Assembly: GCA_035400625.1 (NCBI GenBank)
Contig: DAOMZT010000001.1
Coordinates: 180,001-212,000 of the forward strand
Source: an archaeon
GTDB lineage: Archaea > Iainarchaeota > Iainarchaeia > Iainarchaeales > CSSED10-239
Length of the DNA stretch: 32,000 bases
Direction: 5' to 3'
Shown here piece after piece: positions 3,206 through 17,484 of the stretch. A program made the translations under genes and the position numbers. The stretch's first letter is position 1. Every line of letters starts with the position of its first letter. The notes beneath the pieces were generated by a model. The model was given only the letters and a program-made list of their open reading frames with translations, was not told where the DNA came from and made no database searches.

Positions 3206-5335
3206 TCACATTGGCTGTTGTTCAACTGGCTTAATCAGGCCAGATTTTGGCTCATAAAGCTCTCCTGATTTCTTTAATTTTAAGATGGCGTCCATTAACT
3301 TATCTCTGCTTATGTTTTGTTTTTCCATAGTCTCTGAGATTTCTGCTATTGTTACTGCTTTGCCATCTACAGTCATATCTTTAATTATGTTTAGAACCCT
3401 TTTTATAAATTGCCTTTCGCTTGTTGAGGTGCCTGTTGTTATAATGTCTATATCAATCTTTCCTGTTTCCATATCTACTGCTGTTTGCTCAAGAGAAATC
3501 TTAAAGATATTTATTGCTCTTTGTGCATCTTCAAGCTCTATTGTTGATTTTAAACGAACCTTTGCACTTGCCTCTGATAACCTTATAAGACCCTCAAGCT
3601 GTCTTGGGGTTGCTGCAAAGCTTTCTGATTTTCTGCCTAGGTCTCTCAAGTCAATATAGTAGTTTAGAATCTTTTCTGAAGCCTCTTTACTTAACTTTGG
3701 TCTAATATACTGACGAGCATATGCTACATATTTCTTGAAAATATTAGAATCTATTTTTGGAAGAACTGTGTCTTGGATTTTTTCCATTTCTTCCTTTGTT
3801 AGTTCGGTGTTTGGTTCAGAAAGTTTTTGAGCAGCCTCTTGAACATCTATTATGTGTCTTCCAAGCTCTATGTCAAGAGTTCTGTTTAGAACATCTCTAA
3901 TAATAAAATACAAATCAAATCTTGAAAGAAGAGAAAATGGCAAATCTATCTGCTCTATTGGATTCTTGAACTTATCAAATCTATTGAACTTTGGGTTTGC
4001 TGCTGCAAGAATAGAAGTATCTGCTCTAAACTTAGCATATAGTCCTGCTTTGGAAACAGAAACTGTTGCTTGGGCCATAGCTTCGTGAAGAGTGCTTCTG
4101 TCTTCATTATCCATCTTGTCAAACTCATCAATCATTGCTATTCCGCCAGAAGCTAAAACAACAGCACCGGCTTTTAGAGTCCAACCACCTTCGCCAAAGT
4201 CATCTTTAACAGCAGAAACTGTCAGACCTGCACCAGATGCACTTTTTCCAGAGACAAATATTGACTTTGGGGCAATAGTTGCTGCGTTTCTTAAAAGTTC
4301 GGACTTACCTGTAGATGGGTCACCGACTAGAAGAATATGGATGTTGCCTCTAAAGTCCTGTTTTTGAACTTTCTTTTTTACACCACCAAACATCTGGAGA
4401 GTAATTGCTTGTTTAACAATATCGTGACCATAGATCTTTGGGGCAATTGATTGAGCAAGTAACTCATAGATATCCTCTTTTTTGGCAAGCTGTTTAATCT
4501 CTTCAATCTCATCAGGAGTAATGTCAAGCTCTTCAAATTCCTGATCTACTTTTTCTAGGTGGTTTGCTATCATGTACTTATTAAACATGTTTGAATCTTT
4601 CTGTGGCTTTAGTTTTACAACGCCTGTTACAATTACCTTGTCACCAGCAGAACAAGAATTTACAAGATCATCAGAAATAAAAACCTCAACATGATTTGCT
4701 TGTTCACTGCCTTTTAAGTTTTCTATAGGTTCTTGAATTTCAAGCTTTTGGTAATCTATAAATTTGCTTTGTTCAAGGTCTAAATCAAACTCTCTAGATT
4801 TGCAGTCACACACTACTGGTTTTGTTAGAGTTTGAGATGTTTGTTTAATGTTATAAGAATTTTGACATTTTCTACAAATGAAATGGGCGTCTGTCATTTT
4901 TTGTAGCCTTTCAGTAATCTGTCTTATCATGCCTTCTGCAGACACCAAACAAGTAAGGTGCTTAGAGCCGATATCTCTAATATCTACTCTGTATTCTTCA
5001 GGGAGATTAAAGAACCTTATGTGTGGCTCAAACTTTTGATCTGTTTGCTCAAGAATTCCAACATCTATTCTTCTTAGAGCAACTGTTGCTGCTTCAATTA
5101 TTATGTTTGGGTTTTCTATCAATCTTTCTGAGATATTAAGATCATAGGCTTCTAGTTTTTTATAATCAATGTCTAGGCTTTTTTTTTCAGGATAGTTTGA
5201 TGCTAAAATTTCTATTTCTTTTTTATAGACTGCTTCTAAAAAATCAGTAAATATCGATATATATTCATCTAGAGCCAAGTTTGTTTTGCCATTTTGGCTT
5301 TCGTCAAATTCTTCTTCAAAATCAAACTCTGTCAT
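3206..5335 (-). CDS. mcm: MCM replicative helicase
   Basis: 709 aa. Zinc motif CRKCQ...CDCK, Walker A GDPSTGKS, Walker B IDEFDKM, arginine finger SRFDL. No intein. ATG preceded by aGGGGAtt. Confidence 0.95.
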   Translation of the reverse strand: MTEFDFEEEFDESQNGKTNLALDEYISIFTDFLEAVYKKEIEILASNYPEKKSLDIDYKKLEAYDLNISERLIENPNIIIEAATVALRRIDVGILEQTDQKFEPHIRFFNLPEEYRVDIRDIGSKHLTCLVSAEGMIRQITERLQKMTDAHFICRKCQNSYNIKQTSQTLTKPVVCDCKSREFDLDLEQSKFIDYQKLEIQEPIENLKGSEQANHVEVFISDDLVNSCSAGDKVIVTGVVKLKPQKDSNMFNKYMIANHLEKVDQEFEELDITPDEIEEIKQLAKKEDIYELLAQSIAPKIYGHDIVKQAITLQMFGGVKKKVQKQDFRGNIHILLVGDPSTGKSELLRNAATIAPKSIFVSGKSASGAGLTVSAVKDDFGEGGWTLKAGAVVLASGGIAMIDEFDKMDNEDRSTLHEAMAQATVSVSKAGLYAKFRADTSILAAANPKFNRFDKFKNPIEQIDLPFSLLSRFDLYFIIRDVLNRTLDIELGRHIIDVQEAAQKLSEPNTELTKEEMEKIQDTVLPKIDSNIFKKYVAYARQYIRPKLSKEASEKILNYYIDLRDLGRKSESFAATPRQLEGLIRLSEASAKVRLKSTIELEDAQRAINIFKISLEQTAVDMETGKIDIDIITTGTSTSERQFIKRVLNIIKDMTVDGKAVTIAEISETMEKQNISRDKLMDAILKLKKSGELYEPKSGLIKPVEQQPM

Positions 5336-5345
5336 AAATTAATCC

Positions 5346-5362
5346 CCTAATATTATATTAGG
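5346..5362. promoter_or_regulatory. perfect 8+1+8 palindrome (cctaatat-t-atattagg) in the mcm 5' leader
   Basis: Read directly. It lies between the TATA-like box (5372-5378) and the mcm ATG (5335), and touches the SD-like GGGGA. Confidence 0.4.
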
Positions 5363-5371
5363 TCAAATTCG

Positions 5372-5392
5372 TTATATGCCTGCCTAGTTAGG
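5372..5392 (-). promoter_or_regulatory. mcm promoter: TATA-like box preceded (minus sense) by CCTAACTAGGCAGG
   Basis: Minus sense reads cctaactaggcagg-catataa about 40 nt upstream of the ATG. The same upstream motif recurs at 22585-22601 and 23641-23654. Confidence 0.45.
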
Positions 5393-5457
5393 AAATACCC
5401 GCCATTTTGCATAAAAACCCACAAAAACAATACAGGAAGTGAGGGGGAAACATAAAA

Positions 5458-6438
5458 TCATCTGGGCTTAGAAGACATTCTTCTGTATGTTTCTTTCATT
5501 CTTTTTATTCCAGGAACAACGACCTTGACTTTTCCCTTTGTTTTTTTCCCTTTTATTAATTTTCTTTTAGCATAAACCTCATCTAAGTGTCTTTCTAGTT
5601 CTGTTTTTACAAGTTTTTTCAAAAACCGCTCTTTATCTTTTGACATCCAAAAAGGTTTTTCTATTTCTGCTGGTGTTCCAAAATGAATTCCGTTTTTGGT
5701 TTTTATTGCATAAATTTCTAAAGTTATTGGGTCAATTGCCAATTCTAGATACCCTTTTCCTAAATTCATCTTTTGTGATCTTAGTTCTTTATTTTCTCGT
5801 TTTGTTAATATATTATTTTCTGGTGAGCCAACCTGAGACTTAAAAAACATTCTTCTTACTGTTCCATCGGGCATAGTGACTTTTGCTGTTGTTATTGTAC
5901 CTGATCTTATTGCTCTTACAAAACCATCATAGGTTTCATTACATTTTTTATTAAATTCTATTATGTGGGGTTCTCTTGGAATTGTATTAGTGTGTAATGA
6001 TTTTAATGTGGGTATTACAGACCTGTGTAGTTTGTCACTTGCATAAGATTTGCTTAATTTTTTTAAGTTTATTAAAAAGACAGAAAACTTATTTGCTAGT
6101 TCAATATTAGAATATTTGTCAGAAAGCCTGACTAAAGAAGACACGATTTCTTTTTTTTCAGGGTGTGGACATTGACTTAAATATTTTAATAAAGGAATAT
6201 CAAAAAATCCTCTGATATTGAACTTTTTTCCAAAAATTTTTATTTTTGATCTATCTATTCTAGAAGAATGATAGAAATCAAAAAAATCTTCTAAGAAAAC
6301 TATTGATTTTTTTGCTAATTTTTGTTGTTCTTCGTTGTAGAAAATAATTGTTCTTTTGTTGTTTTTTTCAATTATGTTGATTGTTTGTGGTGATACCCTA
6401 AATGGTAATGAAGAATCGTAAATTAATTCTGTTTTCAT
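5458..6438 (-). CDS. hypothetical protein with a basic C-terminal tail, translationally coupled to rpa
   Basis: 326 aa. The ATG at 6438 lies only 3 nt after the rpa stop (6442-6444). I recognise no motif. The C-terminus is Lys/Arg-rich (KGKKTKGKVKVVVPGIKRMKETYRRMSSKPR). Confidence 0.6.
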   Translation of the reverse strand: MKTELIYDSSLPFRVSPQTINIIEKNNKRTIIFYNEEQQKLAKKSIVFLEDFFDFYHSSRIDRSKIKIFGKKFNIRGFFDIPLLKYLSQCPHPEKKEIVSSLVRLSDKYSNIELANKFSVFLINLKKLSKSYASDKLHRSVIPTLKSLHTNTIPREPHIIEFNKKCNETYDGFVRAIRSGTITTAKVTMPDGTVRRMFFKSQVGSPENNILTKRENKELRSQKMNLGKGYLELAIDPITLEIYAIKTKNGIHFGTPAEIEKPFWMSKDKERFLKKLVKTELERHLDEVYAKRKLIKGKKTKGKVKVVVPGIKRMKETYRRMSSKPR

Positions 6439-6441
6439 ATC

Positions 6442-7761
6442 TTACTCTATCTCAAAAGTGCTTGCCATAAACTCTAGTTGGTTTGAAAAATCATTTATCT
6501 TTGCTTTTCCTGTAACAGTGGCCTTCTTACCTAAAAGCTTACTTTCTGCCTTAGAAAATATCTTTTCTTTCTCTTCTGGTGTCAGGTCTTTTTTTAGATC
6601 TTCTTTTTTAAGATCATAAACGCTTTCTAAAAGCTGGTTGAAAAGACTTACTTTTATTACTCCTGTTGAGTCATCAAGAGTTACTGAAGAAAAGATATTC
6701 ATGTCAGGATCTACTGGCTTGTTACAAGCTTCGCAAATAAACTCGTTATTGATAATAAAGACTTTTTCTCTACATTCTGGGCATTTGAAAGATCTTAAGT
6801 TTCCCTTGTTAATTGAAATTATTGCCCCAGAGATCTTGTAGTTGTTATTGTTTTGAAGAGCACTAATCTTTTCCTCTTTAAAATCATTTGAAACAAGCTC
6901 GCTTAATGGAGGGATCTTTATTTTAGTGTTTGGGTCTTTTGTGACAGTAGAATTCCAATTAATATATAACTCCAGATCATAAAGGCCATCTTTGATTGTA
7001 ACATCAGATAATCTTATTAGGTCGCCTTTTTTTAAATTATTTGAAATCTCTTTTGCCCATGCATCAAAAGCAATACATCTTATAGTCTTTAAGCCATCGC
7101 TTATCTCAAAATTAATAACAAACCTTTCTCTTTCTTCTCTTGTAAATGTCTTTATTGGATAAAGGGCGATGATTCTGCCATAGGTATCAACTGTTCCTTC
7201 TGGTGCAGAATCAATTTCTGAAATCTTAATTACATTTTCTTTAATCTTTTTAATATCTGTTCCTTCTGGGTTTTTAATTACTTGGCCACCTTGTCTTAAG
7301 GATAGCTCTAACTTATCATTATATTGGTTGATTGCTGCATCTTTTATCAGAACCAGATCGTTCTTTTCAAAGCCCTGTTCCTTAACAATTTCTGCCTTGT
7401 CTTGCCATAGATTAAGTTTAATTATTCCTGTTTCATCTTCTAGATAGATTGCTTGGATCTTGCCAAGTCCTCCATCTTTTGACTTGTAGGTTCTAAGAGG
7501 AGGGATAGATTTTATTCTTGCATAAAGAGTAACAGAATCAATGCTTGGGGTAATTTCTGAGATTTTTGTTACAGCACTAGTCTTTTGCTTTAAGTCTAGA
7601 TTAACGCCTAGTTGCTTAGAGAGAAGAATGTTTGCTCCAACATCGCTTAAGAGGCCTTGATATTTTTCTTTTATCTCTTCTAGCTTGGAATTAAGCTCTT
7701 CATCGCTTAAGCCACTTTGGGTTTTAATAATAGAATAAATTTGTTCACTTGTTAGTTGCAT
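6442..7761 (-). CDS. rpa: replication protein A (ssDNA-binding, multi-OB-fold with zinc ribbon)
   Basis: Repeated OB-like segments plus a CPECREKV-x-CEACNKPV C4 zinc ribbon, as in archaeal RPA1-type proteins. The ORF-track start at 7770 is GTG. The ATG at 7761 has GGTGA 5 nt upstream. Confidence 0.8.
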   Translation of the reverse strand: MQLTSEQIYSIIKTQSGLSDEELNSKLEEIKEKYQGLLSDVGANILLSKQLGVNLDLKQKTSAVTKISEITPSIDSVTLYARIKSIPPLRTYKSKDGGLGKIQAIYLEDETGIIKLNLWQDKAEIVKEQGFEKNDLVLIKDAAINQYNDKLELSLRQGGQVIKNPEGTDIKKIKENVIKISEIDSAPEGTVDTYGRIIALYPIKTFTREERERFVINFEISDGLKTIRCIAFDAWAKEISNNLKKGDLIRLSDVTIKDGLYDLELYINWNSTVTKDPNTKIKIPPLSELVSNDFKEEKISALQNNNNYKISGAIISINKGNLRSFKCPECREKVFIINNEFICEACNKPVDPDMNIFSSVTLDDSTGVIKVSLFNQLLESVYDLKKEDLKKDLTPEEKEKIFSKAESKLLGKKATVTGKAKINDFSNQLEFMASTFEIE

Positions 7762-7963
7762 ATTTTTCACCTAATATATATTTAAGACCCCAATATATTA
7801 AAAAGTTACCTTGTTCTAATGCCCTATTATTTTCTTTAGTTTGTTTAAAATAAAACTCTTTTTGTTCATTGGTTTTACATTTATCCATAATTTTTAGGTT
7901 TTTTGCCAAACTAATTTCTCGCATCAATGGTGCGAGTTTTATATATTTGAAAATATTTATTTG

Positions 7964-8030
7964 GCATAAATATATAATGGCCTTAGAAAAGGGGGTTGTT
8001 TTCGGGGGGGTAGGTGTCCAGTGCGAAATT
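7964..8030 (+). repeat. direct repeat copy 1 (G-rich core ccttagaaaagggggttgttttcgggggggtaggtgtccagtgc)
   Basis: Aligns by eye at roughly 85 percent identity with 8617-8682. It ends 1 nt before the toxin stop codon and is preceded by the TATA-like aaatatataa. Confidence 0.8.
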
Positions 8031-8031
8031 G

Positions 8032-8355
8032 TTACAAAAACCCTTTTATCATTTCTTCTAATTTTAAATAAACTTCTTTTCTTTTCGCCTGATTTAAATC
8101 ACAAATATGCATAATTACCATTTCTTTTGGCAAAGTAAAAATAGCGTTTAACTTAATTGTGCTATCATACAATAACCCATCAGCTTTAGTTAATTTTATC
8201 CCTGATGCTTTTTTATTACTTGTAATTGCAGCAAGAATTATATTGCCATATTCAGAAAATAAAACAAGTGCTGGTCTTACTTTAGAACTAGTGTTATCAA
8301 TAAATGGAAAATCAATAAGAACTACTTGCCCGACTTTGGCCTCAATTTTTCCCAT
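8032..8355 (-). CDS. MazF/PemK-family type II toxin (mRNA interferase-like)
   Basis: 107 aa. GQVVLIDFPF...SSKVRPALVLFSE...ILAAITSN matches the PemK/MazF SH3-like fold signature. It lies downstream of, and overlaps, a small antitoxin-like ORF. Confidence 0.75.
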   Translation of the reverse strand: MGKIEAKVGQVVLIDFPFIDNTSSKVRPALVLFSEYGNIILAAITSNKKASGIKLTKADGLLYDSTIKLNAIFTLPKEMVIMHICDLNQAKRKEVYLKLEEMIKGFL

Positions 8356-8558
8356 TTTTCATCTTCTTTATTGTCCCAGACTTCCCTCATTTTTATTTTT
8401 TGTGCATTCATCATTAATTTGAAATAATCGTCTTTTGCTGATTTAGACTTCAATAAATTTGAAATTACATCATCAAATGATTGTCTAGGGTGCATTTTTA
8501 GTTTTTTTAAATCATTTACAACAGATTTTGATAATTGTATTGTGGTATATTCTGACAT
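8322..8558 (-). CDS. putative antitoxin (small, RHH-like N-terminus)
   Basis: 78 aa. TIQLSKSVVNDLKKLK...SFDDVISNLL resembles archaeal ribbon-helix-helix antitoxins. It overlaps the toxin ORF by 34 nt and has GGTGA 7 nt upstream of the ATG. Confidence 0.6.
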   Translation of the reverse strand: MSEYTTIQLSKSVVNDLKKLKMHPRQSFDDVISNLLKSKSAKDDYFKLMMNAQKIKMREVWDNKEDEKWEKLRPKSGK

Positions 8559-8586
8559 GCTATAATCACCTATAAGTAATTATAGC
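8559..8586. promoter_or_regulatory. nested palindrome (gctataat-N12-attatagc, inner ctataa/ttatag arms): candidate TA operator
   Basis: Read directly. It abuts the antitoxin ATG and overlaps its SD, the usual place for autoregulatory operators of type II TA loci. Confidence 0.5.
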
Positions 8587-8616
8587 AAGTTATATTTTTA
8601 AATAAATCTTTTATGT

Positions 8617-8682
8617 GCAAATATATTATAACCTTAGAAACAGGGGTTGTTTTCGGGAGGGTAGATGTCCAGTGCAAGATTT
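8617..8682 (+). repeat. direct repeat copy 2 (ccttagaaacaggggttgttttcgggagggtagatgtccagtgc)
   Basis: Same orientation as 7964-8030. It lies about 60 nt upstream of the antitoxin start and about 190 nt upstream of the ATPase ATG. Confidence 0.8.
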
Positions 8683-8798
8683 AAAAAACATTTATTTTTA
8701 AAACATTTTGATATTAATTTTTCTAATTAAAATATGTTAAAATCACGAACTTAAATATGATAATAAAAATGTCAAAGTAAAATAAATTAACAACATAT

Positions 8799-8853
8799 AT
8801 AAACATAAAGTAAGATATATATTTACTAATAAACATAAAGTAAGATTTACTAA
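8799..8853 (+). repeat. imperfect tandem repeat (ataaacataaagtaagat + [atata]tttacta, two units) in the ATPase promoter region
   Basis: Units at 8799-8828 and 8829-8853, ending 22 nt before the ATG at 8875. Confidence 0.7.
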
Positions 8854-8874
8854 AAAATATAAAATAAGAACAAG

Positions 8875-11181
8875 ATGAAGATTGGCAATTATACTGTTGG
8901 GGACTACATAGTAGATAATGAAGGTGGCAAGAAAAAGCTTATCTTTGATTGTAGACATTGTGTCTATAACACTTCTATTTCTGATGATCCTAGGTGTAGA
9001 TACCATGTCATGAAAACACTTGCAACAGTTGATGCTGATGAAGTTATTCTTGCAGAAGTCTATGAAAGAGTATATACTCAAAAGCAAACTTCCTTTCTTA
9101 AAGAAATGGTAGACCTGTTGCTTGATTTTGAGAACAGGGCTGTTTGGGTATCCTCTCATCTTAAAATAGAAGACATGGATTGTGATGAGTGTTATCCACA
9201 AAGGCATAATAATATTCTTAGGTTTGCTAGAGATCTTTTATCTTATGACCCTATAGCATCATATATCTCTCTTCTCAAAGAAGTAGAAAACACAAAAACT
9301 AGAGCAAATGAACAATCTGGAAGAGATTGTGAAAAATGCTTTAAAGCTAATCTTAAACATTTATTGTCTTTAAAAGAACAATATGATAAAACTGATTTTG
9401 TTAAGACATTAAAGCCGATACTTACAAAAATAAAGGACTATAATGATCTAACAGATGTTTATAAGACAGTATTTGAAGCACAAGTCAAGCCAGCTTTTAT
9501 TGGCTCTCAGCTTCTAAGAAGTGATGCAGAAAAATTTGAGTTGATAGATGAATATCAAGTGCTAACCACAAATGTTCAGATATTTAAACATCCAGAAAAG
9601 ATAGAGCTAATCTATAATATAAATCCACCAGAATATACTTTGTCACCAGACCATTATTTTGTTTTGTCAAAAACAAAAGACACTGTTGCTAATTATCAGC
9701 CAGGAAAAGTAACATTAACTTCTGGAACTGGCACAAGAAAATATTTCCAAAGAATATACCAAAGCACGATTGTTGATGTTGCTAGAAAATATGGAATTTC
9801 TTTAGCACCAGATGATGTTACTGCTCTTTCTGAAATTGTTACAAGATACACTATAGGCTATGGCATCTTGGAGATGGTATTATCTGATAGAAACATAACA
9901 GATGTCTATATTGATTCGCCAATCGGTGCCAGACCAATCTATATTGTGCATAGCAAATATGGTCAATGCCAAACAAACATACTTTATACAGATAAAGAAG
10001 CAGAATCTCTTGTTGGTAAAATGAGGGCAATGTCTGGAAGGCCTTTTGATGATGCTCACCCAATTTTAGATTATGATCTTCCAGATCTTAATACTAGAGT
10101 TGCTGCTATTGGCAGGCCACTAGCAACTGATGGCACTGCTTTTGCATTTAGATTGCATAAAGACACGCCATGGACCTTGCCACAACTGATTAATGTCAAG
10201 TCCCTAAATCCATTAGCTGCAGGAATGCTATCTTTTTTCATAGATAATAGCTCAACATTATTAGTTGCAGGTTCTCGTGGGTCTGGTAAAACATCTTTGA
10301 TGACTGCTTTAATGCAAGAGATTTTACAGAACAAAAGAATAATTGTTCAGGAAGACACTCTTGAATTACCAATAATGTACTTAAAAGACATTGGATTTAA
10401 TGCTCAAAGACTAAAAACAAAATCAGCAATTGGTTCTGATGAGGAGTCTGGCGAAGTCAAGCCAGAAGATGCATTAAGAACTGCTTTAAGACTTGGAGAC
10501 TCCGCTATCATTGTTGGAGAAGTTAGAAGTGTAGAAGCTAAGGTCTTATATGAAGCTATGAGAATTGGCGCTGCTGGTAATGTTGTTATGGGAACAATCC
10601 ATGCAGACTCTGCTTATGCTGTATGGGACAGAGTTGTTAATGACTTGGGGGTTCCAACAACTTCTTTTAAGGCTACAGATCTTGTCGTTGTAACTAAACC
10701 TATAAGATTTAAAGGTTCATTAAAGAGCCATAGAAGAGTAGTGCAAATAACAGAAGTCAAGAAACATTGGAATACCGATCCAGATGCTGAAGGTGGATTG
10801 ATTGATTTAATGACTTATGATGCAGGAAAAGATGCATTAATATTAAACGAAGATGCACTTAAAGATTCTGATCTTTTTACAAAGATTTCAACATTGTCTG
10901 GAATGTCAATTGAAGAGATATGGGATAATATCAAGCTTTTAGCTAAGGAAAAGGAATATCAGGTAGAGCTTGCTAGAGAATTAAAGTGTATGGAGTTGTT
11001 GGAGGCAGAATACACTATATCTATACACAATAAACTGCTTTTGATTAAGGAAGAGTGGATAGAAGAGTATGGCAAGATTGATTTTAATGCTATTCTTGTT
11101 GAGTGGAAGAAATGGCTAAAAGAGGATTTTGCCCCAACCATTGTAAAAAGAATAAATGAAAATAAGAAATTAGAAGAATAA
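8875..11181 (+). CDS. FlaI/VirB11/GspE-superfamily secretion or type IV filament ATPase with a long N-terminal extension
   Basis: 768 aa. Walker A GSRGSGKTS, Asp box RIIVQEDTLEL, Walker B IIVGEVRSVEA, His box GTIHADSA. About 450 aa precede the P-loop, including CRHC...C and CDEC Cys pairs. Confidence 0.85.
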   Translation: MKIGNYTVGDYIVDNEGGKKKLIFDCRHCVYNTSISDDPRCRYHVMKTLATVDADEVILAEVYERVYTQKQTSFLKEMVDLLLDFENRAVWVSSHLKIEDMDCDECYPQRHNNILRFARDLLSYDPIASYISLLKEVENTKTRANEQSGRDCEKCFKANLKHLLSLKEQYDKTDFVKTLKPILTKIKDYNDLTDVYKTVFEAQVKPAFIGSQLLRSDAEKFELIDEYQVLTTNVQIFKHPEKIELIYNINPPEYTLSPDHYFVLSKTKDTVANYQPGKVTLTSGTGTRKYFQRIYQSTIVDVARKYGISLAPDDVTALSEIVTRYTIGYGILEMVLSDRNITDVYIDSPIGARPIYIVHSKYGQCQTNILYTDKEAESLVGKMRAMSGRPFDDAHPILDYDLPDLNTRVAAIGRPLATDGTAFAFRLHKDTPWTLPQLINVKSLNPLAAGMLSFFIDNSSTLLVAGSRGSGKTSLMTALMQEILQNKRIIVQEDTLELPIMYLKDIGFNAQRLKTKSAIGSDEESGEVKPEDALRTALRLGDSAIIVGEVRSVEAKVLYEAMRIGAAGNVVMGTIHADSAYAVWDRVVNDLGVPTTSFKATDLVVVTKPIRFKGSLKSHRRVVQITEVKKHWNTDPDAEGGLIDLMTYDAGKDALILNEDALKDSDLFTKISTLSGMSIEEIWDNIKLLAKEKEYQVELARELKCMELLEAEYTISIHNKLLLIKEEWIEEYGKIDFNAILVEWKKWLKEDFAPTIVKRINENKKLEE

Positions 11182-11182
11182 A
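11145..11182 (+). repeat. 38-nt repeat copy A, the true 3' end of the ATPase gene (KRINENKKLEE-stop)
   Basis: Identical at 37 of 38 positions to 11346-11383. Confidence 0.85.
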
Positions 11183-11345
11183 TTTGTTTAATGGATTAAT
11201 TACATTTCATAGGTGTGTGCAAAACATATAAAAAGATGTCAGTTATAATTGACATGTTTTTAGAAGTGTGCAAAGTATAGTTTACATGTTTTTTGGGCGT
11301 GTTTGTTTAAAAATAACGTGATAGCAAGCAATAAATTTAGATATT

Positions 11346-11383
11346 AAAAAGAATAAATGAAAACAAGAAATTAGAAGAATAAA
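11346..11383 (+). repeat. 38-nt repeat copy B, an orphan duplicate of the ATPase 3' end
   Basis: Would encode the same KRINENKKLEE-stop. The single difference (aat to aac) is synonymous. It ends 2 nt before the stop of the convergent gene 11386-11613. Confidence 0.85.
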
Positions 11384-11385
11384 GT

Positions 11386-11613
11386 TTATTTCTTATTTGC
11401 TGTTTTGGTTCTTGCTTTTGGCTCAATTTGTATTTTGGAGAAAACAAAGATATACAATATTGGCAATATTCCGATTGTGTTTAAAACAAGCATAACTCCA
11501 AACCAAGGCATATGATCATTTTTACATGCTTTCCATAAAGCAAATCCTTTCCAAATCAAATCCCAAATTGTTAATGCAATAATAAGCCATAATAATGTGT
11601 TTTCTGAAATCAT
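11386..11613 (-). CDS. small two-TM Trp-rich membrane protein (DUF5652-like)
   Basis: 75 aa. IWDLIWKGFALWKACKN...WFGVMLVLNTIGILPILYIF resembles the DUF5652 miniprotein family as I recall it. It starts 31 nt after the stop of the 1056-aa gene, so it is probably co-transcribed. Confidence 0.55.
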   Translation of the reverse strand: MISENTLLWLIIALTIWDLIWKGFALWKACKNDHMPWFGVMLVLNTIGILPILYIFVFSKIQIEPKARTKTANKK

Positions 11614-11644
11614 AATAATATATATGAAAGAAAAATATTTAAAA

Positions 11645-14600
11645 TCAAAGTTTGTTCCTTTTTGGGTTTTTTCTCTTTTTTATAACAATCAGTATTATAG
11701 CAATTATTACTACTAATATTGAAAGATCTAAAAGCCAGAAAAGCCAAGTGTTTGATTTCTTTTTTTCTGAAGTTTCAGATTCTTGATTTTCTCCTGAAAC
11801 TGCAGTAATTACTGGAACACCTGTTGTGTCGGTTATTTTGTCTGTATTAGTATCATTGTTGGTTGTTGTGTTAGTGTCAGGAGAGTAAGTGATTGTTTTG
11901 TCTTTGTATGTTGTGTTGTTAGTATTATCTGCAGATGAACTTCCAGATGAGGAAGATTCATAATCGTCATCATCTTCTTCTGAAACCTCTTGTATTTTCA
12001 CACTTATATCTTGTCTTTTTGAACAACTTGTTTTATCTTTATCAGTAAATTTACCATCAAATTGTAATTTTATAGTTTTTGTGGTTGTTGACTCAAACAC
12101 ATCTGATACAATTTCTATTCTTAGGTATTCTGAATCTTTATTATTGATTTTTGTAGGCTCTTCTTTGATTGTAATGTCTAGGCCAGATGCTTGCGTTAAT
12201 GAAAGATTGGTTATATTAAAATTAAAACTTGAATCATTTGTTATTGCTATTGATTTTGTAACTGTGCTGTCTGAGTAGGTTGTTATTGATGTTGTTGTTA
12301 CCTTTAGATCTGAACAGCTTGCTTTTTCTTCTTCCTCTTCTTCCTCTTCCTCCTCTTCTCCGGTGCTACCACCACCTGAACCGCCACCGCCACCACCAGT
12401 GCCACCGCCTCCAGAAGTTGCAGGGGTGTATGCTGTAAAATCAGTAAAGTGCTTTGTCCAGATTACTAAGTCTCCATCTTTAGAAGTATAGCAATCTCCT
12501 GTATGATTTTTATCGTAATTTTCTGAATTTAAATCTTGTAAATAAGTATCAGGATCTGAAAGTTGGTTTTCATCACATTCATCAATTCCATATAAGTTGC
12601 CATCAAGTATATACCCTGCTCTTTTTCCTGCCATACCGCCTATTATTATTTTTACTGCTTTAGAAAAAAGTAATGTCTTGTTCTCATCAAGTCCAAGAGT
12701 GATTGTAATTTCAGATGTTCCTTTATCGCCTATATCATAATTATCTGTAACTGTTGGTAGTATTAGGTTACCATCCCAGCCATTAATGCCCATTATGTTT
12801 GTATCTGAATAGATTGTTACTGAGTGTTTTGTTGTGGTTGTTTGTCTTTCAAAGAAGAAATTACCGTCTTCTGGGACAATTACAGAATTATTGTCTGTAT
12901 CTAAAATTTCAGATAGATCAAAAATAACTTGTGAGTTGCTGTCTACAAATGATGGAATAACAACAGTGTAGCTAGAATCATCATGCTCAAAGCTAACATA
13001 GTTATTATCAACAATTCTTTGAAAGCTCCATTTGTTATTATCTAATACTAGATGGAAAGGAGTGTAAGGATTATTAGAATCATCAACTAATGAACAATTG
13101 GTATCGTCAATCATTATTATTGCGCCATTATTTGAATCAGTTGTATTAAAATCAATATAATATCCGTTTTCATCATTATGATAGATTGCTGAAAAAATAG
13201 CTCTGTTCACATCAATAGTTAGATAATAAAAATTTAAATCGTGCCCATCTACTAATGGTGTTATATTTAGGTTTGGTGGGTTTGTGTCTAGATTTAAATT
13301 TTCTGTAAAATATACCCTCACATGATTTTCATCATTATTGTTTGTATCAATATAGGAGAAAGGCAGTGCATTATCATCTATTGTTGTGTTGTTATCTAAA
13401 TAACTTGCATCAATTAGAGGAGATTTATTTCCAAGAATATCAACAAATGCATTTTCATCTATTTTAAAAGAGTCATTTACATCAGTAAATAATGCAAATG
13501 CAGGAGAAAAATAAATTGTTATTAAGTTATTATTTGCATCTACATCTAAAGAACTAACTACATCTTCTATTCCGTTAACAACAATTTTGTTTTTTGTGTT
13601 TTCATCAATGCAATCAAAATTAATATCTTCGTCATCAAAGCTTAAAATCATTTTATATCTGTTTGGGATTGTTATATTTTTTAATATTGGAGCCGTAGTA
13701 TCCCAAACAAAATTAAAATTAGAATCTTTTGAATTACCTGCACGGTCAGTGACTGTTAAAGTAATAGTGTAGTTGCCATCAGATGATGCATTGATGTCTG
13801 TAGATTCTAAATTAGGAGATAGAATGTTTACCTCATCAAGTGTGCTCCAATAATAAGTAGCTATACCAGAACCGTCATCACTTGCATTGGAATCGATATG
13901 TATTGTTTGATTGGTATAAACATCATTTAAGGAAATTGTTGGAGCTGTAGTATCCCAAATAAAATTAAAATCGGCTGATTGAGTGTTACCTGCACGATCT
14001 GTAACTGTTAAAGTAATAGTGTAGTTGCCATCAGATGATGCATTAATGTCTGTAGATTCTAAATTAGGAGATAGAATGTTTACCTCATCAAGTGTGCTCC
14101 AATAATAAGTAGCTATACCAGAACCGTCATCACTTGCATTGGAATCGATATGTATTGTTTGATTGGTATAAACAGTATTTAAGGAAATTGTTGGAGCATT
14201 AGTATCCCAAATAAAATTAAAATCTTCATATCCGGTATTACCAGCACGGTCAGTAACCGTTAAAGTGATATGATAGTTGCCATCGGCAGAAGCATTTATA
14301 TCTGTGACATTAGAATCATCATCACTAAAAGTAATATTTTCCTGAGGAGAAGCAGACCACTTATAACTTGCAATACCAGAAAGTTCATCTGTTGCAGTGG
14401 CAGTAACAGTTACAGTCTGGTTTGTGTCAATGTCTTCTATGGCAGAAATAACAGGAGCAGTAGTGTCAATTATCAATTCATATGTGGTTCCGTCATAATA
14501 AGTAGCGTCCTCAATAGTCATCATGGCATTTACATCATAATTGCCATCTGCTAATTCTAAAGCAATAAGACTCCAAGTGTTTGTATCATAATCTACAACT

Positions 14601-14815
14601 ACATTTGAATCTAAAGAAGTATAGCTTATTGAATTTATTATGATTATAAAATTTGCATCTCCTGATATGCCATTTAAATCAAATCTACCATTTGTATCTG
14701 GTGTACGGTCGTTTGTTACTAAAGGATTAACAGTTATGCTTGGTTCTGCAAAAACAAAACCTAAAATAAATATTAAAGACAAAGACAATAAAATCTTAGA
14801 AAGTGGTTTAGACAT
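11645..14815 (-). CDS. large C-terminally anchored surface protein with tandem Ig-like repeats (adhesin-like)
   Basis: 1056 aa. It has a signal peptide (LSLSLIFILGFVFA), three DTxAP...TVTDRAGN units, Asn/Asp/Thr-rich beta-rich regions, a Gly then Glu linker, a Ser/Thr/Asn stalk, then a TM helix with a basic tail (WLFWLLDLSILVVIIAIILIVIKKRKNPKRNKL). GAGGT lies upstream of the ATG. Confidence 0.8.
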   Translation of the reverse strand: MSKPLSKILLSLSLIFILGFVFAEPSITVNPLVTNDRTPDTNGRFDLNGISGDANFIIIINSISYTSLDSNVVVDYDTNTWSLIALELADGNYDVNAMMTIEDATYYDGTTYELIIDTTAPVISAIEDIDTNQTVTVTATATDELSGIASYKWSASPQENITFSDDDSNVTDINASADGNYHITLTVTDRAGNTGYEDFNFIWDTNAPTISLNTVYTNQTIHIDSNASDDGSGIATYYWSTLDEVNILSPNLESTDINASSDGNYTITLTVTDRAGNTQSADFNFIWDTTAPTISLNDVYTNQTIHIDSNASDDGSGIATYYWSTLDEVNILSPNLESTDINASSDGNYTITLTVTDRAGNSKDSNFNFVWDTTAPILKNITIPNRYKMILSFDDEDINFDCIDENTKNKIVVNGIEDVVSSLDVDANNNLITIYFSPAFALFTDVNDSFKIDENAFVDILGNKSPLIDASYLDNNTTIDDNALPFSYIDTNNNDENHVRVYFTENLNLDTNPPNLNITPLVDGHDLNFYYLTIDVNRAIFSAIYHNDENGYYIDFNTTDSNNGAIIMIDDTNCSLVDDSNNPYTPFHLVLDNNKWSFQRIVDNNYVSFEHDDSSYTVVIPSFVDSNSQVIFDLSEILDTDNNSVIVPEDGNFFFERQTTTTKHSVTIYSDTNIMGINGWDGNLILPTVTDNYDIGDKGTSEITITLGLDENKTLLFSKAVKIIIGGMAGKRAGYILDGNLYGIDECDENQLSDPDTYLQDLNSENYDKNHTGDCYTSKDGDLVIWTKHFTDFTAYTPATSGGGGTGGGGGGSGGGSTGEEEEEEEEEEEKASCSDLKVTTTSITTYSDSTVTKSIAITNDSSFNFNITNLSLTQASGLDITIKEEPTKINNKDSEYLRIEIVSDVFESTTTKTIKLQFDGKFTDKDKTSCSKRQDISVKIQEVSEEDDDDYESSSSGSSSADNTNNTTYKDKTITYSPDTNTTTNNDTNTDKITDTTGVPVITAVSGENQESETSEKKKSNTWLFWLLDLSILVVIIAIILIVIKKRKNPKRNKL
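12323..12415 (-). repeat. low-complexity linker coding SGGGGTGGGGGGSGGGSTG followed by 12 consecutive Glu
   Basis: Read from the translation (aa 801-831). On the plus strand it appears as ttc/ctc runs followed by a cca/ccg-rich run. Confidence 0.9.
13703..14467 (-). repeat. three tandem Ig-like domain repeats; the last two (13955-14206, 13703-13954) are near-identical 252-nt units
   Basis: aa 117-203, 204-287 and 288-371. Units 2 and 3 are identical through the central roughly 70 aa and differ only near the unit ends. Confidence 0.9.
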
Positions 14816-15019
14816 TATTAATTACCTCTAGTGTATTATCAGATATGTAAAATATATTATTTATTTAATATTATATGGCTGTTTATTTTATATATTTAAT
14901 TATTTTATGAAAAATAAAAAGAAAAAATAAATGACGATTTATGTCTATTATAATAGACAGATTTCAAGAAATAGTAAAATGAAGTTTGTGTTTTTTGGGT
15001 AGCAATATTGGTCAGCTTG

Positions 15020-15062
15020 TTGAACAAAAAGAGGCTATTTTGTTCAATGTATTGAACAAAAA
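15020..15062. promoter_or_regulatory. three alternating copies of TTGAACAAAA / TTTTGTTCAA able to form two mutually exclusive 10-bp hairpins
   Basis: ttgaacaaaaa (15020-15030), ttttgttcaa (15038-15047), ttgaacaaaaa (15052-15062). Located about 205 nt upstream of the 1056-aa gene ATG and about 200 nt downstream of the S-layer gene stop. Confidence 0.4.
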
Positions 15063-15264: not shown

Positions 15265-17484
15265 TTACTCGATTGGCCAGCTTGTGATTACGTTTATTAA
15301 TTCGCTTGCTGCTGTGCCTGTATCTGCTTTTGTCCAACCAGCAACATAGATGTTACTGTTTGCGTGTTTACCTACGATAAAGTCGTCTTCTTCAACTAAG
15401 GAATCTTCAGTTATACCTTCAGCAAACTTGTTTACAAGGTGTCCACCTACTACGATTTTAGTACCTGATATTTCCATGACATCTTTCTTTAGAAGATCGC
15501 TTGGATTTACTTGAGTTTCAATGTATGGGTGATATGGGTTTGTTTGTTCTGTGTCGCCAGGTGTTGTAATTACTCCACCAATGAATAACTCGTATTTCTT
15601 TGGATCTTCAGGTAATGATACATTGATATATCCGTTAGCTATTTTTACTACTCCACCTGTTGCTGTGTATCCTTCTTGGATATCATCGTCGTCTTCATCA
15701 TTCAAGTTGAATTTCCAATTACCATTAGCATATTTTACTTTTGGACCAGTAAAGTTATCCATTACGTCTTCATCTGCTAATTTGAAATTCTTTGTATCCA
15801 TAGAGAAGTTAATATCTTTAGGTGCGGTATCTACATCTTTTATTGTAAAGATTGTTGCATTTCTGTCGCTACCTGTGTTGAAACCATCGAAAAAATCTGT
15901 TTCGTCTCCACCAGTTATTGAAAAAGTACCTTTTTTGCCTATATTTCCATCAGTTCCTTTGAATGCAATTGCCATTTCATTAGAATTTGCTAAAATTCTA
16001 AATTGGTGTGAGGTACCTGAAGTTAAATCACTTACTATGGTGACATTTGTGTCTGCTGCAACATCGTGTGCACCAGCAATGAATTCGTCTTCATCACTTG
16101 TTTCGCTTACTGTGTAGTTGCCATCAACATCTCTTATCAAATAATAGTCTTTGTTGTCAACTGCGAACTTCATTTTTGATTCTGATCCTGTTGTAAATGC
16201 TTTCTTCAAAAACAATGGAACTTCATATGTGTACTTATAATCTGACCACTTTATTGTTTTATTAGATGTTATTTCAAAGTCGTACATTGTTTCATCTGTT
16301 AGTCCAACAAACTTTACAGAACCTAAATCATTTGGGAAGTCTGCTGAATCGCCTATTTTTAATGCTGGGAAGTCTGCATTTTCTCCAACGTCACTCCAAC
16401 CATCTGTATCTGTAACTCTTATTTCTTTAAGGTAGTGGTTTGCAGTGAATGTTTCATCCCAATTAGCAGTCCATTCTCTTTCGTCCTCGCCTGTGAAATC
16501 TTCAATCTCTTCTCCGTTGTTTAATTCTAACACAGCATTACCTTGGCTAATTTCAACATAACCTTGTTGATTATCTGCATAGTTGACTTCTGTAACAGTT
16601 ATTTCAGATATCTTGCCATTGAATGTGGTTGATTTACCTTCTCTTAAGCTTTGTGATCCAACTTGTGAAGATCCTTGCTTTAACAATAGAAGAACTCTAT
16701 CTTGTGTGATTGTTGATACTTCTACGGTGTAATCATCTATTACGAAAACGCCACCCTCTCTATATATTAACTTATTTTCTTGTTCAACTAAAGTTATTTT
16801 ATCTTCAGTAATAGATCTTATCTTATATGTTTTACCCATGAATGGAATTTCTATATCGTGTTGTCCGCCAGCATTCAATGTATAATCTGTAGCTGATGTA
16901 TCTGTTACTTTAATACCTGTACTGCCTAAATTTAGGGTGTATTTTGCAGTACCTGCTGGTATTTTTGCGATTACTGCTTGGACATCTTCATCTGCCTCAA
17001 AGTAAACGTCTGAAACATTTACATCCATAGTTTCTTTTACATTTTTTAGTGTTTTCTTTGTGTCATCGTGATCGTAATATTCTATGTCGCCATCGAATAA
17101 TTTGTTGTATTTTGTATATTTTACACTGAAATCATCATCAAGGTCAAAACCCATATCATCATCATCGAACAAAGTGCCATCATCTGTTGTTGTGCCAGGA
17201 GTGCTAGGGGTTGGTACCCATGCGTCATATTGTGGGTTTCTCTTCTTTGCACTTGTTGCGATTGCGTTTGCTATGTTCTGTGCCCATTGATCGTCGTCTC
17301 CGTTTACTCCGGTAACAATACTTACTTTTGGTTGCATTGTTGAGGTTGTGTAAACATCGCCTTTTACAACTGGACCAAATGTGTCGCCACTGTTGTTACC
17401 AGCTATTGCTACGCCCAGAACACCTACACCTAATGCAAGTGCTGCTGCGCCAGCAACTACTTTTTTTACATTTATATTCTTCAT
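15265..17484 (-). CDS. probable S-layer / major cell-envelope protein
   Basis: 739 aa. Signal peptide KKVVAGAAALALGVGVLGVAIAG, a very acidic Asp/Thr/Gly-rich body without Cys, and no C-terminal TM. The C-terminal block IVVGGHLVNKFA...YVAGWTKADTGTAASEL resembles archaeal (Methanococcales-type) S-layer C-terminal domains as I recall them. It has the strongest SD in the window (GGAGGAG) and its own terminator. Confidence 0.6.
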   Translation of the reverse strand: MKNINVKKVVAGAAALALGVGVLGVAIAGNNSGDTFGPVVKGDVYTTSTMQPKVSIVTGVNGDDDQWAQNIANAIATSAKKRNPQYDAWVPTPSTPGTTTDDGTLFDDDDMGFDLDDDFSVKYTKYNKLFDGDIEYYDHDDTKKTLKNVKETMDVNVSDVYFEADEDVQAVIAKIPAGTAKYTLNLGSTGIKVTDTSATDYTLNAGGQHDIEIPFMGKTYKIRSITEDKITLVEQENKLIYREGGVFVIDDYTVEVSTITQDRVLLLLKQGSSQVGSQSLREGKSTTFNGKISEITVTEVNYADNQQGYVEISQGNAVLELNNGEEIEDFTGEDEREWTANWDETFTANHYLKEIRVTDTDGWSDVGENADFPALKIGDSADFPNDLGSVKFVGLTDETMYDFEITSNKTIKWSDYKYTYEVPLFLKKAFTTGSESKMKFAVDNKDYYLIRDVDGNYTVSETSDEDEFIAGAHDVAADTNVTIVSDLTSGTSHQFRILANSNEMAIAFKGTDGNIGKKGTFSITGGDETDFFDGFNTGSDRNATIFTIKDVDTAPKDINFSMDTKNFKLADEDVMDNFTGPKVKYANGNWKFNLNDEDDDDIQEGYTATGGVVKIANGYINVSLPEDPKKYELFIGGVITTPGDTEQTNPYHPYIETQVNPSDLLKKDVMEISGTKIVVGGHLVNKFAEGITEDSLVEEDDFIVGKHANSNIYVAGWTKADTGTAASELINVITSWPIE

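Follow-up and report, generated by a model that had tools for sequence, protein, structure and literature searches.

The analysed stretch, referred to below as the window, comprises 32,000 nt of an archaeon of the Iainarchaeota (Iainarchaeia; Iainarchaeales; CSSED10-239; assembly GCA_035400625.1, contig DAOMZT010000001.1, positions 180,001 to 212,000). The element in question is a G-rich direct repeat, which occurs twice in this window, on both sides of a toxin–antitoxin (TA) pair. The window has a G+C content of about 30% and also encodes MCM, RPA, RtcB, EF-1alpha and a FlaI/VirB11-type ATPase, as identified by Pfam searches with 19 of its approximately 26 open reading frames (ORFs). Homologues of this ATPase are assigned to 'Candidatus Diapherotrites' or 'Ca. 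Iainarchaeum', so that the host belongs to the DPANN archaea. Both repeats and the TA pair are located between the genes for RPA and the ATPase, where the following features were assigned (related loci in other contigs are designated by L numbers):

6442–7770, minus strand: gene of an RPA-type single-stranded DNA-binding protein (Pfam), the conserved left border of a variable spot, with synteny in L013, L030, L045, L047, L048, L050 and L053
7826–7948, minus strand: yhcG (DUF1016/PDDEXK nuclease) pseudogene remnant of 123 nt (tblastn; blastn 74% over 129 nt; weak Pfam match to DUF1016_N)
7939–8030, plus strand: repeat copy 1 in its extended form, head module of the decayed neighbouring yhcG unit; its left flank corresponds to core X of L030, its right flank to core Y of L030
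7966–7979, unstranded: A/T block of copy 1, ATAAATATATAATG, at a fixed distance from the box and in gapless register in all close copies
7992–8024, plus strand: G-rich box of copy 1, GGGGTTGTTTTCGGGGGGGTAGGTGTCCAGTGC, with a central CG at 8003/8004
8032–8355, minus strand: mazF/pemK-type toxin gene (Pfam PF02452, 1.7e-11)
8322–8558, minus strand: antitoxin gene of the PF02697 VAPB_antitox type (Pfam, 7e-07), overlapping the toxin gene by 34 nt
8559–8586, unstranded: palindrome over the Shine–Dalgarno (SD) sequence and start of the antitoxin gene, invariant in the homologues of L013, L052 and L053
8590–8602, minus strand: TATA-like box of the TA operon itself, TTTAAAAATATAA, kept in all four TA homologues, including that of L053, which is without the head module
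8590–8681, plus strand: repeat copy 2 in its extended form, head module of the vapB-mazF unit, accompanying the TA pair at another locus in L051/L052
8619–8631, unstranded: A/T block of copy 2, AAATATATTATAA, read from the sequence
8643–8675, plus strand: G-rich box of copy 2, with a central CG at 8654/8655
8678–8689, minus strand: T/A-rich box TTTTTTAAATC directly behind the G-rich box of copy 2, a candidate TATA box for leftward transcription
8875–11181, plus strand: FlaI/VirB11-type (T2SSE) ATPase gene (Pfam; orthologues), the conserved right border of the variable spot

The repeat search yielded the segments 7939–8030 and 8590–8681 as the sole direct-repeat family (92 nt, 78% identity, offset 651). 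A first-pass annotation, made from the sequence of the window, had described two direct copies enclosing exactly one functional unit, and this description was borne out. Over the 67 nt originally noted, 55 positions are identical, and the G-rich box differs at only two of 33 positions between the copies (31/33 identical). The 586 nt between the copies contain exactly two genes, both supported by Pfam, which form one VapB–MazF operon. The stop codon of the toxin gene is located 1 nt from copy 1, the antitoxin ORF overlaps the toxin ORF, and the palindrome over the SD sequence and start of the antitoxin gene consists of inverted arms at 8555–8572 and 8573–8590. The G-rich core stands out against its AT-rich surroundings, as had been stated, and the positions given for the second copy were 1–2 nt off, which is immaterial. 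The absence of an integrase from the window likewise agrees with the Pfam results for the ORFs searched. A search allowing up to 3 mismatches found the box only twice in the window, with 0 copies expected in 100 shuffles.

When the search for the core was extended beyond the window, as the first-pass annotation had proposed, the box proved to be a low-copy family with 28 distinct copies, mostly located directly before unrelated genes in AT-rich contigs of the Diapherotrites/Iainarchaeum type. An exact-pattern scan of one genome per species detected the box in two archaeal metagenome-assembled genomes, at two loci each, and in one chance bacterial match. The scan of metagenome contigs gave 23 loci, and the genuine matches were all in archaeal contigs of 26–33% G+C. 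Matches in high-GC contigs (L002, L006, L008, L009, L011, L012, L017, L018, L021 and L025) contain neither the A/T block nor the remainder of the box and were rejected as chance. Further, more diverged copies were found by use of a profile built from 14 copies. A 293-kb contig of the window's own species, which is near-identical to the window, contains at least 4 copies, namely the pair flanking the TA genes as well as L014 and L015; about 2–5 copies were seen per genome. A viral or plasmid origin was rejected, as three pattern scans of viral contigs gave 0 matches or only chance matches in high-GC contigs. In a low-coverage contig of 1 kb (L007, 680–1, reverse strand), a match to copy 2 plus 45 nt beyond it is followed by two unrelated small ORFs; this continuation replaces the upstream region of the ATPase gene and represents either another variant or a chimeric assembly.

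From left to right, the module consists of the A/T block, about 12 semi-conserved nt and the 33-bp box, and close copies align without gaps. The consensus of the A/T block is AATAATATAT or AAATATAT[A/T]AT, and that of the box is GGGGTTGTTTTCGGG[G/A]GGGTAGNTGTCCAGTG, or GGGGTTGTTTTCGGG[G/A]GGGTAGNTGTCCAGT in the alignment of close copies. Conservation ends sharply after CCAGT(G), and the A/T block is found at a fixed distance from the box in nearly all copies. The diverged copies L013', L024c, L051 and L053 have another sequence in place of the first half of the box but retain TTTTCGGGGGGGTAGNTGTCCAGTG; the second half is therefore regarded as the core. Directly behind the G-rich box most copies possess a T/A-rich box, which reads TTTTTTAAA[T/G], TTTATAAAC or CTATAAAT on the other strand. 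The version behind copy 2 also follows the core in L015 and in X of L030, and boxes of the TTTATAAA type occur in L014, L003, L053, L051 and L065. These T/A-rich boxes are similar to the TTTAWAAA boxes upstream of other genes of the window. In archaeal promoters, the TATA box is located about 25 nt upstream of the transcription start. TATA-like blocks flank the G-rich box on both sides at distances which suit a predicted promoter; the A/T block of copy 1 may be either such a TATA-like element or an A/U-rich leader.

The module is conserved in sequence, and a conserved structure was not detected. RNA folding of both copies on both strands was no better than that of shuffled sequence (z from +0.04 to +1.24), single-strand DNA folds of the two window copies showed no common hairpin, and neither copy contains an inverted pair according to the repeat search. 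For copy 1, the DNA fold (z −2.5) is owed to an upstream A/T palindrome that is missing from copy 2 (z −1.2 and −0.6). Rfam searches, at the gathering threshold and at E ≤ 10 for the repeat region, matched nothing in the window or at 15 related loci, and ARAGORN detected no tRNA at any copy. An attachment site in a tRNA or split tRNA was thus rejected; a match to a tRNA 5' half seen by eye fails at the D-arm. A coding repeat with the plus-frame peptide (M)xxxKGVVFGGVGVQC was also rejected, since ATG is present in only two of the first six copies and the differences between copies lack a bias for third codon positions. The four G-tracts of a putative G-quadruplex are not conserved, with copy 2, L014 and L015 possessing at most three.

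The position of the module relative to the adjacent genes is highly regular. In about 14 of 20 units, the ATG of the partner gene is located on the opposite strand, 0–14 nt from the A/T block, often with an SD sequence (GGTGAT) in between. Genes whose ATG touches the A/T block leave no room for a promoter except within the box or beyond it. The assumption that the module is probably the promoter or leader region of the gene it heads, which in the window would act on the minus strand, is based mainly on this geometry. The partner genes are mutually unrelated according to Pfam and comprise Bro-N proteins (three kinds), YhcG/DUF1016 nucleases (two paralogues), ORF6N, Schlafen/AlbA_2 with HATPase_c_4, a TrmB-like protein together with a DUF6036 nucleotidyltransferase, a winged helix-turn-helix protein, a Cas4-like PDDEXK nuclease and VapB–MazF, as well as radA in L010. 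In the reverse direction, from gene to module, homologues of the YhcG of L045 at three new loci again carried the module at their 5' ends. It was detected by nhmmer at L063 (E 2e-4) and L065 (8e-9), while L068 showed only a diverged form, recognised by eye. In L065, two divergent genes, each with its own module, face each other across a spacer of 186 nt. A fixed orientation and attachment to the 5' end of the gene it heads thus characterise the module.

Of the two window copies, copy 2 is part of the TA unit. The block of box, A/T block, TA promoter, operator, vapB and mazF is conserved in L013, at the same locus in a related species, and the same TA block is found in L051/L052 at a different locus beside a PPDK-like gene, with no box after mazF. 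The TA pair itself is an ordinary MazF-type operon, and the palindrome over the start of the antitoxin gene is probably its autoregulatory operator. Copy 1 is the head of the adjacent yhcG unit, which is now decayed. In the segment 7826–7948, tblastn revealed 41 residues, 27 of them (66%) identical to residues 93–133 of the YhcG of L045 (E 8e-16). L045 possesses an intact yhcG at the same place between RPA and ATPase, with one module copy at its head and no TA pair; a remnant of the L015-type yhcG was rejected, as tblastn was negative and the remnant is of the L045 type. At six loci yhcG keeps the box on its 5' side. Read along the minus strand, the order is ATPase, copy 2 heading vapB-mazF, copy 1 heading the yhcG remnant, and RPA. 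The TA pair thus looks bracketed because two headed units lie in tandem.

Two further observations concern yhcG. The YhcG of L045 has homologues with about 65% identity annotated in Nitrospirae bacteria and in Woesearchaeota/Nanoarchaeia, which suggests a recent inter-domain transfer. Within the remnant of the window, a perfect palindrome CTCGCATCAATGGTGCGAG is present at 7907–7925; the same position reads CTCCAACCGTTGGTTGGAG in L030/L039 (L030 3296–3314) and CTGCAACCAATAGCCGCAG in L045 (about 7671–7689). In L045 this stretch is located in the spacer downstream of the core (7570–7629), outside the intact yhcG (6596–7576). The difference between strains looks like either quasi-palindrome correction or a selected hairpin.

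The comparison of strains revealed gain, loss and exchange of whole units at these repeats. In L030, the RPA, MazF, VapB and ATPase proteins are identical to those of the window, yet three boxes are present, and an additional unit of 1.7 kb, encoding the TrmB-like protein and DUF6036, is located between the first two. Positions 1–3405 of L030 correspond to 4626–8030 of the window and 5077–11582 to 7951–14450, with an overlap of 80 nt. Both flanking boxes therefore map to copy 1 of the window, and the breakpoints of the indel lie inside the repeat. Copy 2 of the window and core X of L030 are 92% identical over 65 nt, although they head different genes, and in a multi-strain alignment copy 1 of L027 is a mosaic, matching X of L030 in its left flank, copy 2 in its middle and Y of L030 in its right flank. 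Seven short contigs stop inside copy 1, which is how assemblers behave at branches in a population. L026, L019 and L020 share uvrA, a small ORF, a Bro-N gene and the box at 84–97% identity; this homology stops exactly at CCAGT, and to the right of the box there follows a tail of 110 nt, a stretch of 2.3 kb with three genes, or one of 1.5 kb with a different set of three. The TrmB-like/DUF6036 pair occurs in L030 (3433–5065) and in L026 (11342–12408) with about 80% identity and a circularly permuted gene order; L030 retains a 20-nt copy of the TrmB 3' end before DUF6036.

The orthologous spacer between RPA and ATPase differs in its content among relatives and is empty, with no repeat, in more distant ones:

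L045: yhcG and a module
L013: an AlbA_2 gene, a module, the TA pair and a module
L053: yhcG, a gene of 475 aa, the TA pair, two modules and a truncated box
L047: other genes and a degenerate box
L050: a 167-aa gene and no module
L048/L049: 184 nt, empty

Modules therefore come and go with units and are not part of conserved RPA or ATPase promoters. One repeat without the TA pair was found in L045, there as the head of yhcG; L048 and L050 contain neither the TA pair nor the repeat. YhcG with its module occupies this spot in L045 and other loci in L047, L053, L063 and L065; the proteins of L045 and L047 are 75% identical, are encoded at different loci and have a module at each. The insertion points are not the same: relative to a sequence that corresponds by homology to about 7900–7945 of the window, the unit of L045 is located towards RPA and the units of the window towards the ATPase.

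GC-richer tails follow some of the copies on the plus strand (L001/L010, L003/L024, L019, L047, L051 and L053), and none is present in the window. Their positions are as follows:

L019: 2590–2760, minus strand
L053: 120–440 and 1440–1860, both minus strand
L047: 14840–14960
L026: 5433–5545
L010: 9303–9385

In L019 and L053, the tails consist of tandem units of 85–165 nt, which start with ...CCCCTTTTGAAAAAAG and end with ...GGTTGACGCGCAGCC..TTTGTGTAT.GCTCTACTGGAG. They are similar to a decayed combination of T-rich box and G-rich box; the tails are candidate "ghost" modules, presumably left by the loss of units. No Rfam match was obtained for the tail units, and RNAalifold gave 4 pairs without covariation and no consensus fold; a short stem just before GGTTGAC, however, shows compensatory changes in three genomes.

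It is likely, with a probability of roughly 0.55, that the repeats are copies of a portable gene head of the promoter/operator type which doubles as a substrate for recombination. The module would serve as a portable promoter/operator for the gene behind it. Direct copies of 35–80 bp recombine, so that whole units are inserted, deleted or exchanged and the copies are mosaics of one another; a circular or flanked unit could enter or leave through any box, by homologous recombination or gene conversion. The strain alignments show indels of unit size with breakpoints in the repeat, as well as exchange between copies. Homologous recombination is favoured as the probable route over a dedicated enzyme, because the copies are mosaics, the insertion points differ, and no hairpin or recombinase gene was found. 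Pfam matches to an integrase (PF00589), resolvase or transposase were absent from the gene tables of about 25 loci with flanks of ±6–8 kb, a box-II motif scan for recombinases found none, and there was no integrase among the 25 top families listed for 71 array ORFs.

Of the two readings which the first-pass annotation had offered, a mobile cassette or a promoter, leader or small-RNA module, both are partly supported, and they are not alternatives. The modular, recombining architecture of the former is seen in the extra unit of L030 and in the TA pair with its upstream repeat at an unrelated locus. "Duplication of its target" is not an apt description, since copy 2 belongs to the TA unit and copy 1 to the decayed yhcG unit. 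As to the latter, a promoter-type element is indicated by the A/T block at its fixed distance. A promoter for the plus strand only does not fit, because the start codons abut the A/T block and the partners' own minus-strand promoter should therefore be located within the box or beyond it; a conserved RNA fold or an Rfam family was not found.

Several observations weigh against the portable gene head. TATA-like strings are cheap in such A/T-rich DNA, and the predicted promoter activity and its direction rest on geometry. The near-identity of 33 bp across loci and genera exceeds what an archaeal promoter or operator normally needs and fits better to a recombination site or an RNA. In the diverged copies (L013', L024c, L051 and L053), the distance between the A/T block and the conserved half of the box is shifted. 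Moreover, a separate TATA-like box and operator of the TA operon are located between copy 2 and vapB; the TA pair of L053 keeps both without the module, which is therefore not needed for TA transcription.

An identity above the need of a promoter would also be expected if the box were the attachment site of a dedicated site-specific cassette system, comparable to attC/attI of integrons, with the recombinase encoded elsewhere and units that circularise and reinsert. This explanation is rather unlikely, even though it accounts for the arrays in direct orientation, in which each boundary is occupied by a box (window; three boxes in L030; L023/L024; L013), for the homology of L019, L020 and L026, which ends exactly at the box edge CCAGT, and for the circular permutation of the TrmB/DUF6036 pair between L030 and L026. 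Its cargo of TA, nuclease and nucleotidyltransferase genes is typical of integron cassettes (Ghaly 2022, PMC9668308), and clusters of attC sites without an integrase (CALINs) are known and common (PMC9668308). On the other hand, the gene tables of about 25 loci and the motif scan contained no recombinase, an inverted-repeat or hairpin architecture common to both copies is missing (RNA z about 0, inconsistent DNA folds), a core of the GTTRRRY type is likewise absent, and the box accompanies the 5' end of the unit instead of the 3' end. The patchwork copies resemble gene conversion, and the insertion points between RPA and ATPase differ between L045 and the window. That each copy is a small RNA gene on the plus strand, starting at the central CG with the A/T block as TATA box and sharing the 5' module GGGGGGGUAGNUGUCCAGU, is improbable. 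The RNA of copy 1 would be antisense to the 3' end of mazF. The spacing of the A/T block indeed puts the predicted start on the C–G at 8003/8004 and 8654/8655, the conserved half follows downstream of this start, and some copies run into GC-rich tails which end in T-runs and contain the motif CGGTT[G/T]CGC..GCGCA[G/A] as well as a stem of 6 bp that shows compensatory changes in three genomes (CAACCG/CGGTTG, GAATCG/CGATTC, TAACCG/CGGTTA). Yet the short copies fold no better than shuffled sequence, RNAalifold gave no consensus structure for the tail units, and no Rfam family was matched at any threshold. In the window copies, CCAGTGC is followed by nothing but A/T-rich DNA, L051 and L053 deviate in the distance between A/T block and conserved half, and a 20-mer conserved in sequence only, with no partner, is atypical of RNA.

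A site similar to the origin recognition box (ORB), bound by a winged-helix protein of the Orc1/Cdc6 type either at an origin beside MCM and RPA or at damage operators like those of Orc1-2, is very improbable. The sequence TCCAGTGGAA(AC) in L023, L026 and L053 equals the dyad of the archaeal consensus CTTCCAGTGGAAACGAAAGGGGT (PMC4153887, PMC4164010), with a G-run 6 nt away, but this G-run is on the opposite side and strand, and the window copies read TCCAGTGC instead of TCCAGTGGA. An Orc1 paralogue of the Sulfolobales is a regulator of the DNA damage response (PMC6061795), and the cumulative GC skew of the window has its minimum at 8–9 kb, beside MCM and RPA; the copies, however, are direct and scattered over many loci instead of inverted around an unwinding element, they are missing from the orthologous spacer in L048 and L050, and an orc1/cdc6 gene is not adjacent. 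A plain local duplication, or a target-site duplication caused by insertion of the TA pair, with no wider meaning, would agree with the occurrence of the box at only two positions in the 32-kb window, but it is refuted by the 28 distinct copies at other loci and in other genomes, before unrelated genes, and by copy 1 in L045, which heads yhcG without a TA pair; its probability is negligible.

Genes for repair or replication repeatedly follow directly downstream of headed units, and both have the same orientation. This applies to uvrA (L003/L026, L005/L028 and L019), radA (L010 directly; L068 after yhcG-ORF6N), radC (L065/L066) and rpa-mcm (window, L013, L045 and L053); uvrC (L023) and a gene of the endonuclease III type (L014) are convergent neighbours, with identities read from their translations. 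The headed units might be under a common stress or DNA-damage control, which is a lead only, and the association comprises a dozen loci found via the repeat itself, which weakens it as an argument for the portable promoter/operator. It is an improbable extension that the box acts as operator in a regulon for stress or DNA damage of these DPANN archaea, where an Orc1/Cdc6-like winged-helix protein might bind it in view of the ORB-type dyad, and at the same time as recombination site of a native archaeal cassette system. If this were true, captured defence, TA and nuclease genes would be plugged into a regulon beside uvrA, radA, radC and rpa-mcm, and the system would be an integron-like platform in which the "att" site is a promoter and not a hairpin.

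Little is known about how archaea of the DPANN group, with their tiny genomes, obtain and rearrange genes for defence and addiction. Here, a repeat defined by its sequence, and predicted to be of the promoter type, marks the boundaries of accessory units in one lineage, where units are gained, lost and relocated. If the module is a shared promoter/operator, imported genes such as yhcG, with its 65%-identical homologues in Nitrospirae, would receive ready-made expression signals, and a first handle on a regulon in uncultured Iainarchaeia would be available. In practical terms, the repeat breaks metagenome assemblies at such loci and might be used as a marker for variable islands. TA pairs inside superintegron arrays oppose the loss of their neighbours (PMC9668308); by analogy, the TA pair in the array of the window may do the same.

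Other features of the window and of related contigs were observed in addition. A 21-nt direct repeat, ATAAACATAAAGTAAGAT[A/T]TA, is present at 8799–8819 and 8829–8849, 30 nt apart, in the A/T-rich region upstream of the ATPase gene. The cumulative GC skew over positions 1–32000 bottoms near 8000–9000, which is the spacer between RPA and ATPase beside MCM and RPA; this minimum alone is not evidence for an origin, because the gene orientation also switches there. Approximately 37 nt at the end of the ATPase ORF recur as a second copy 200 nt further on (11147–11185 and 11347–11385), and the two copies flank a non-coding insert, which is missing in some strains (L034), while one strain (L038) possesses an AAA_14/DUF4143 gene there; the 3' end of the ATPase gene is thus a second indel hot spot with a duplicated gene 3' end. 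A surface protein with PKD/Ig repeats (window 11645–14815; L030 8771–12715) comprises 1056 and 1314 aa, respectively, in these near-identical strains, owing to the copy number of internal repeats. In L047, a separate purine-rich intergenic repeat of 97 nt occurs three times (13693–13789, 14953–15049 and 16546–16642) in an accessory array on one strand (AbiEii, AAA_14/DUF4143 three times, and YhcG) downstream of the ATPase gene, and a similar array was found in L050.

In comparison with known systems, the TA pair belongs to the type II MazEF/PemIK systems, with the antitoxin gene first, overlapping genes and a palindromic operator over SD sequence and start; it deviates in its antitoxin, which is of the PF02697 type and not MazE. 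ORB elements consist of a dyad TCCA-N-TGGAAAC followed by GGGG(T) on the same strand, and occur as inverted pairs around an A/T-rich DNA unwinding element next to orc1/cdc6. The present box shares with ORB and Orc1-2 elements the dyad TCCAGTGGA and a G-run in some copies, and the proximity to replication and repair genes, whereas its G-run precedes the dyad, the dyad of the window copies is imperfect, and the direct copies are dispersed, with no orc1/cdc6 neighbour. Miniature inverted-repeat transposable elements and repeats derived from insertion sequences have terminal inverted repeats, a target-site duplication and many copies; the present repeat has no terminal inverted repeats, its flanks are free of short duplications, and only 2–5 copies per genome were seen. 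The attL/attR sites that result from integration into tRNA or small-RNA genes are similar in that direct repeats of tens of nt flank inserted genes, and some copies with their longer GC-rich tails resemble a full-length site; in contrast, none of the copies coincides with a tRNA or known RNA gene, an integrase was not found, and the arrays do not end in a full-length copy.

Integron cassette arrays and CALINs have been reported in Archaea as well (Ghaly et al. 2022, PMC9668308). Common to these and the present arrays are small accessory units (TA, nucleases and nucleotidyltransferases) in one orientation with a repeated site at each boundary, the presence or absence of whole units between strains and the occurrence of TA units inside the arrays. 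The site of the window, however, is devoid of the R''-L''/L'-R' inverted repeats and of a hairpin, according to the folds and the repeat search, and of a GTTRRRY/RYYYAAC core, as GTTT comes after the only GTT and a RYYYAAC partner is absent. While attC is conserved in structure and belongs to the 3' end of the cassette ORF, the present box is conserved in sequence and is located at the 5' end of the unit together with TATA-like elements, with none after mazF in L052. A complete integron has an adjacent intI, but no IntI or other recombinase was detected within ±6–8 kb of about 25 loci, and only about 2–5 copies were seen per genome. The module thus resembles integron arrays in architecture and population dynamics, yet it differs from attC and integrons in each of the membership tests that were run. 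The module also resembles putative mobile promoters (Matus-Garcia, Nijveen and van Passel 2012, summarised in PMC3575422), which are sequences of at least 50 nt with at least 80% identity upstream of non-homologous genes, within as well as between genomes. Copy 2 and core X of L030, with 92% identity over 65 nt before different genes, the 55 of 67 identical positions of the two window copies, and the unrelated Pfam families of the partners agree with this description, as does the lack of an insertion sequence element and of an Rfam match. That class is purely descriptive and has its definition in bacteria, whereas the present copies also mark breakpoints and form tandem arrays, and they occur in DPANN archaea. 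The repeat is a new, lineage-restricted putative mobile promoter, which also behaves like a cassette boundary.

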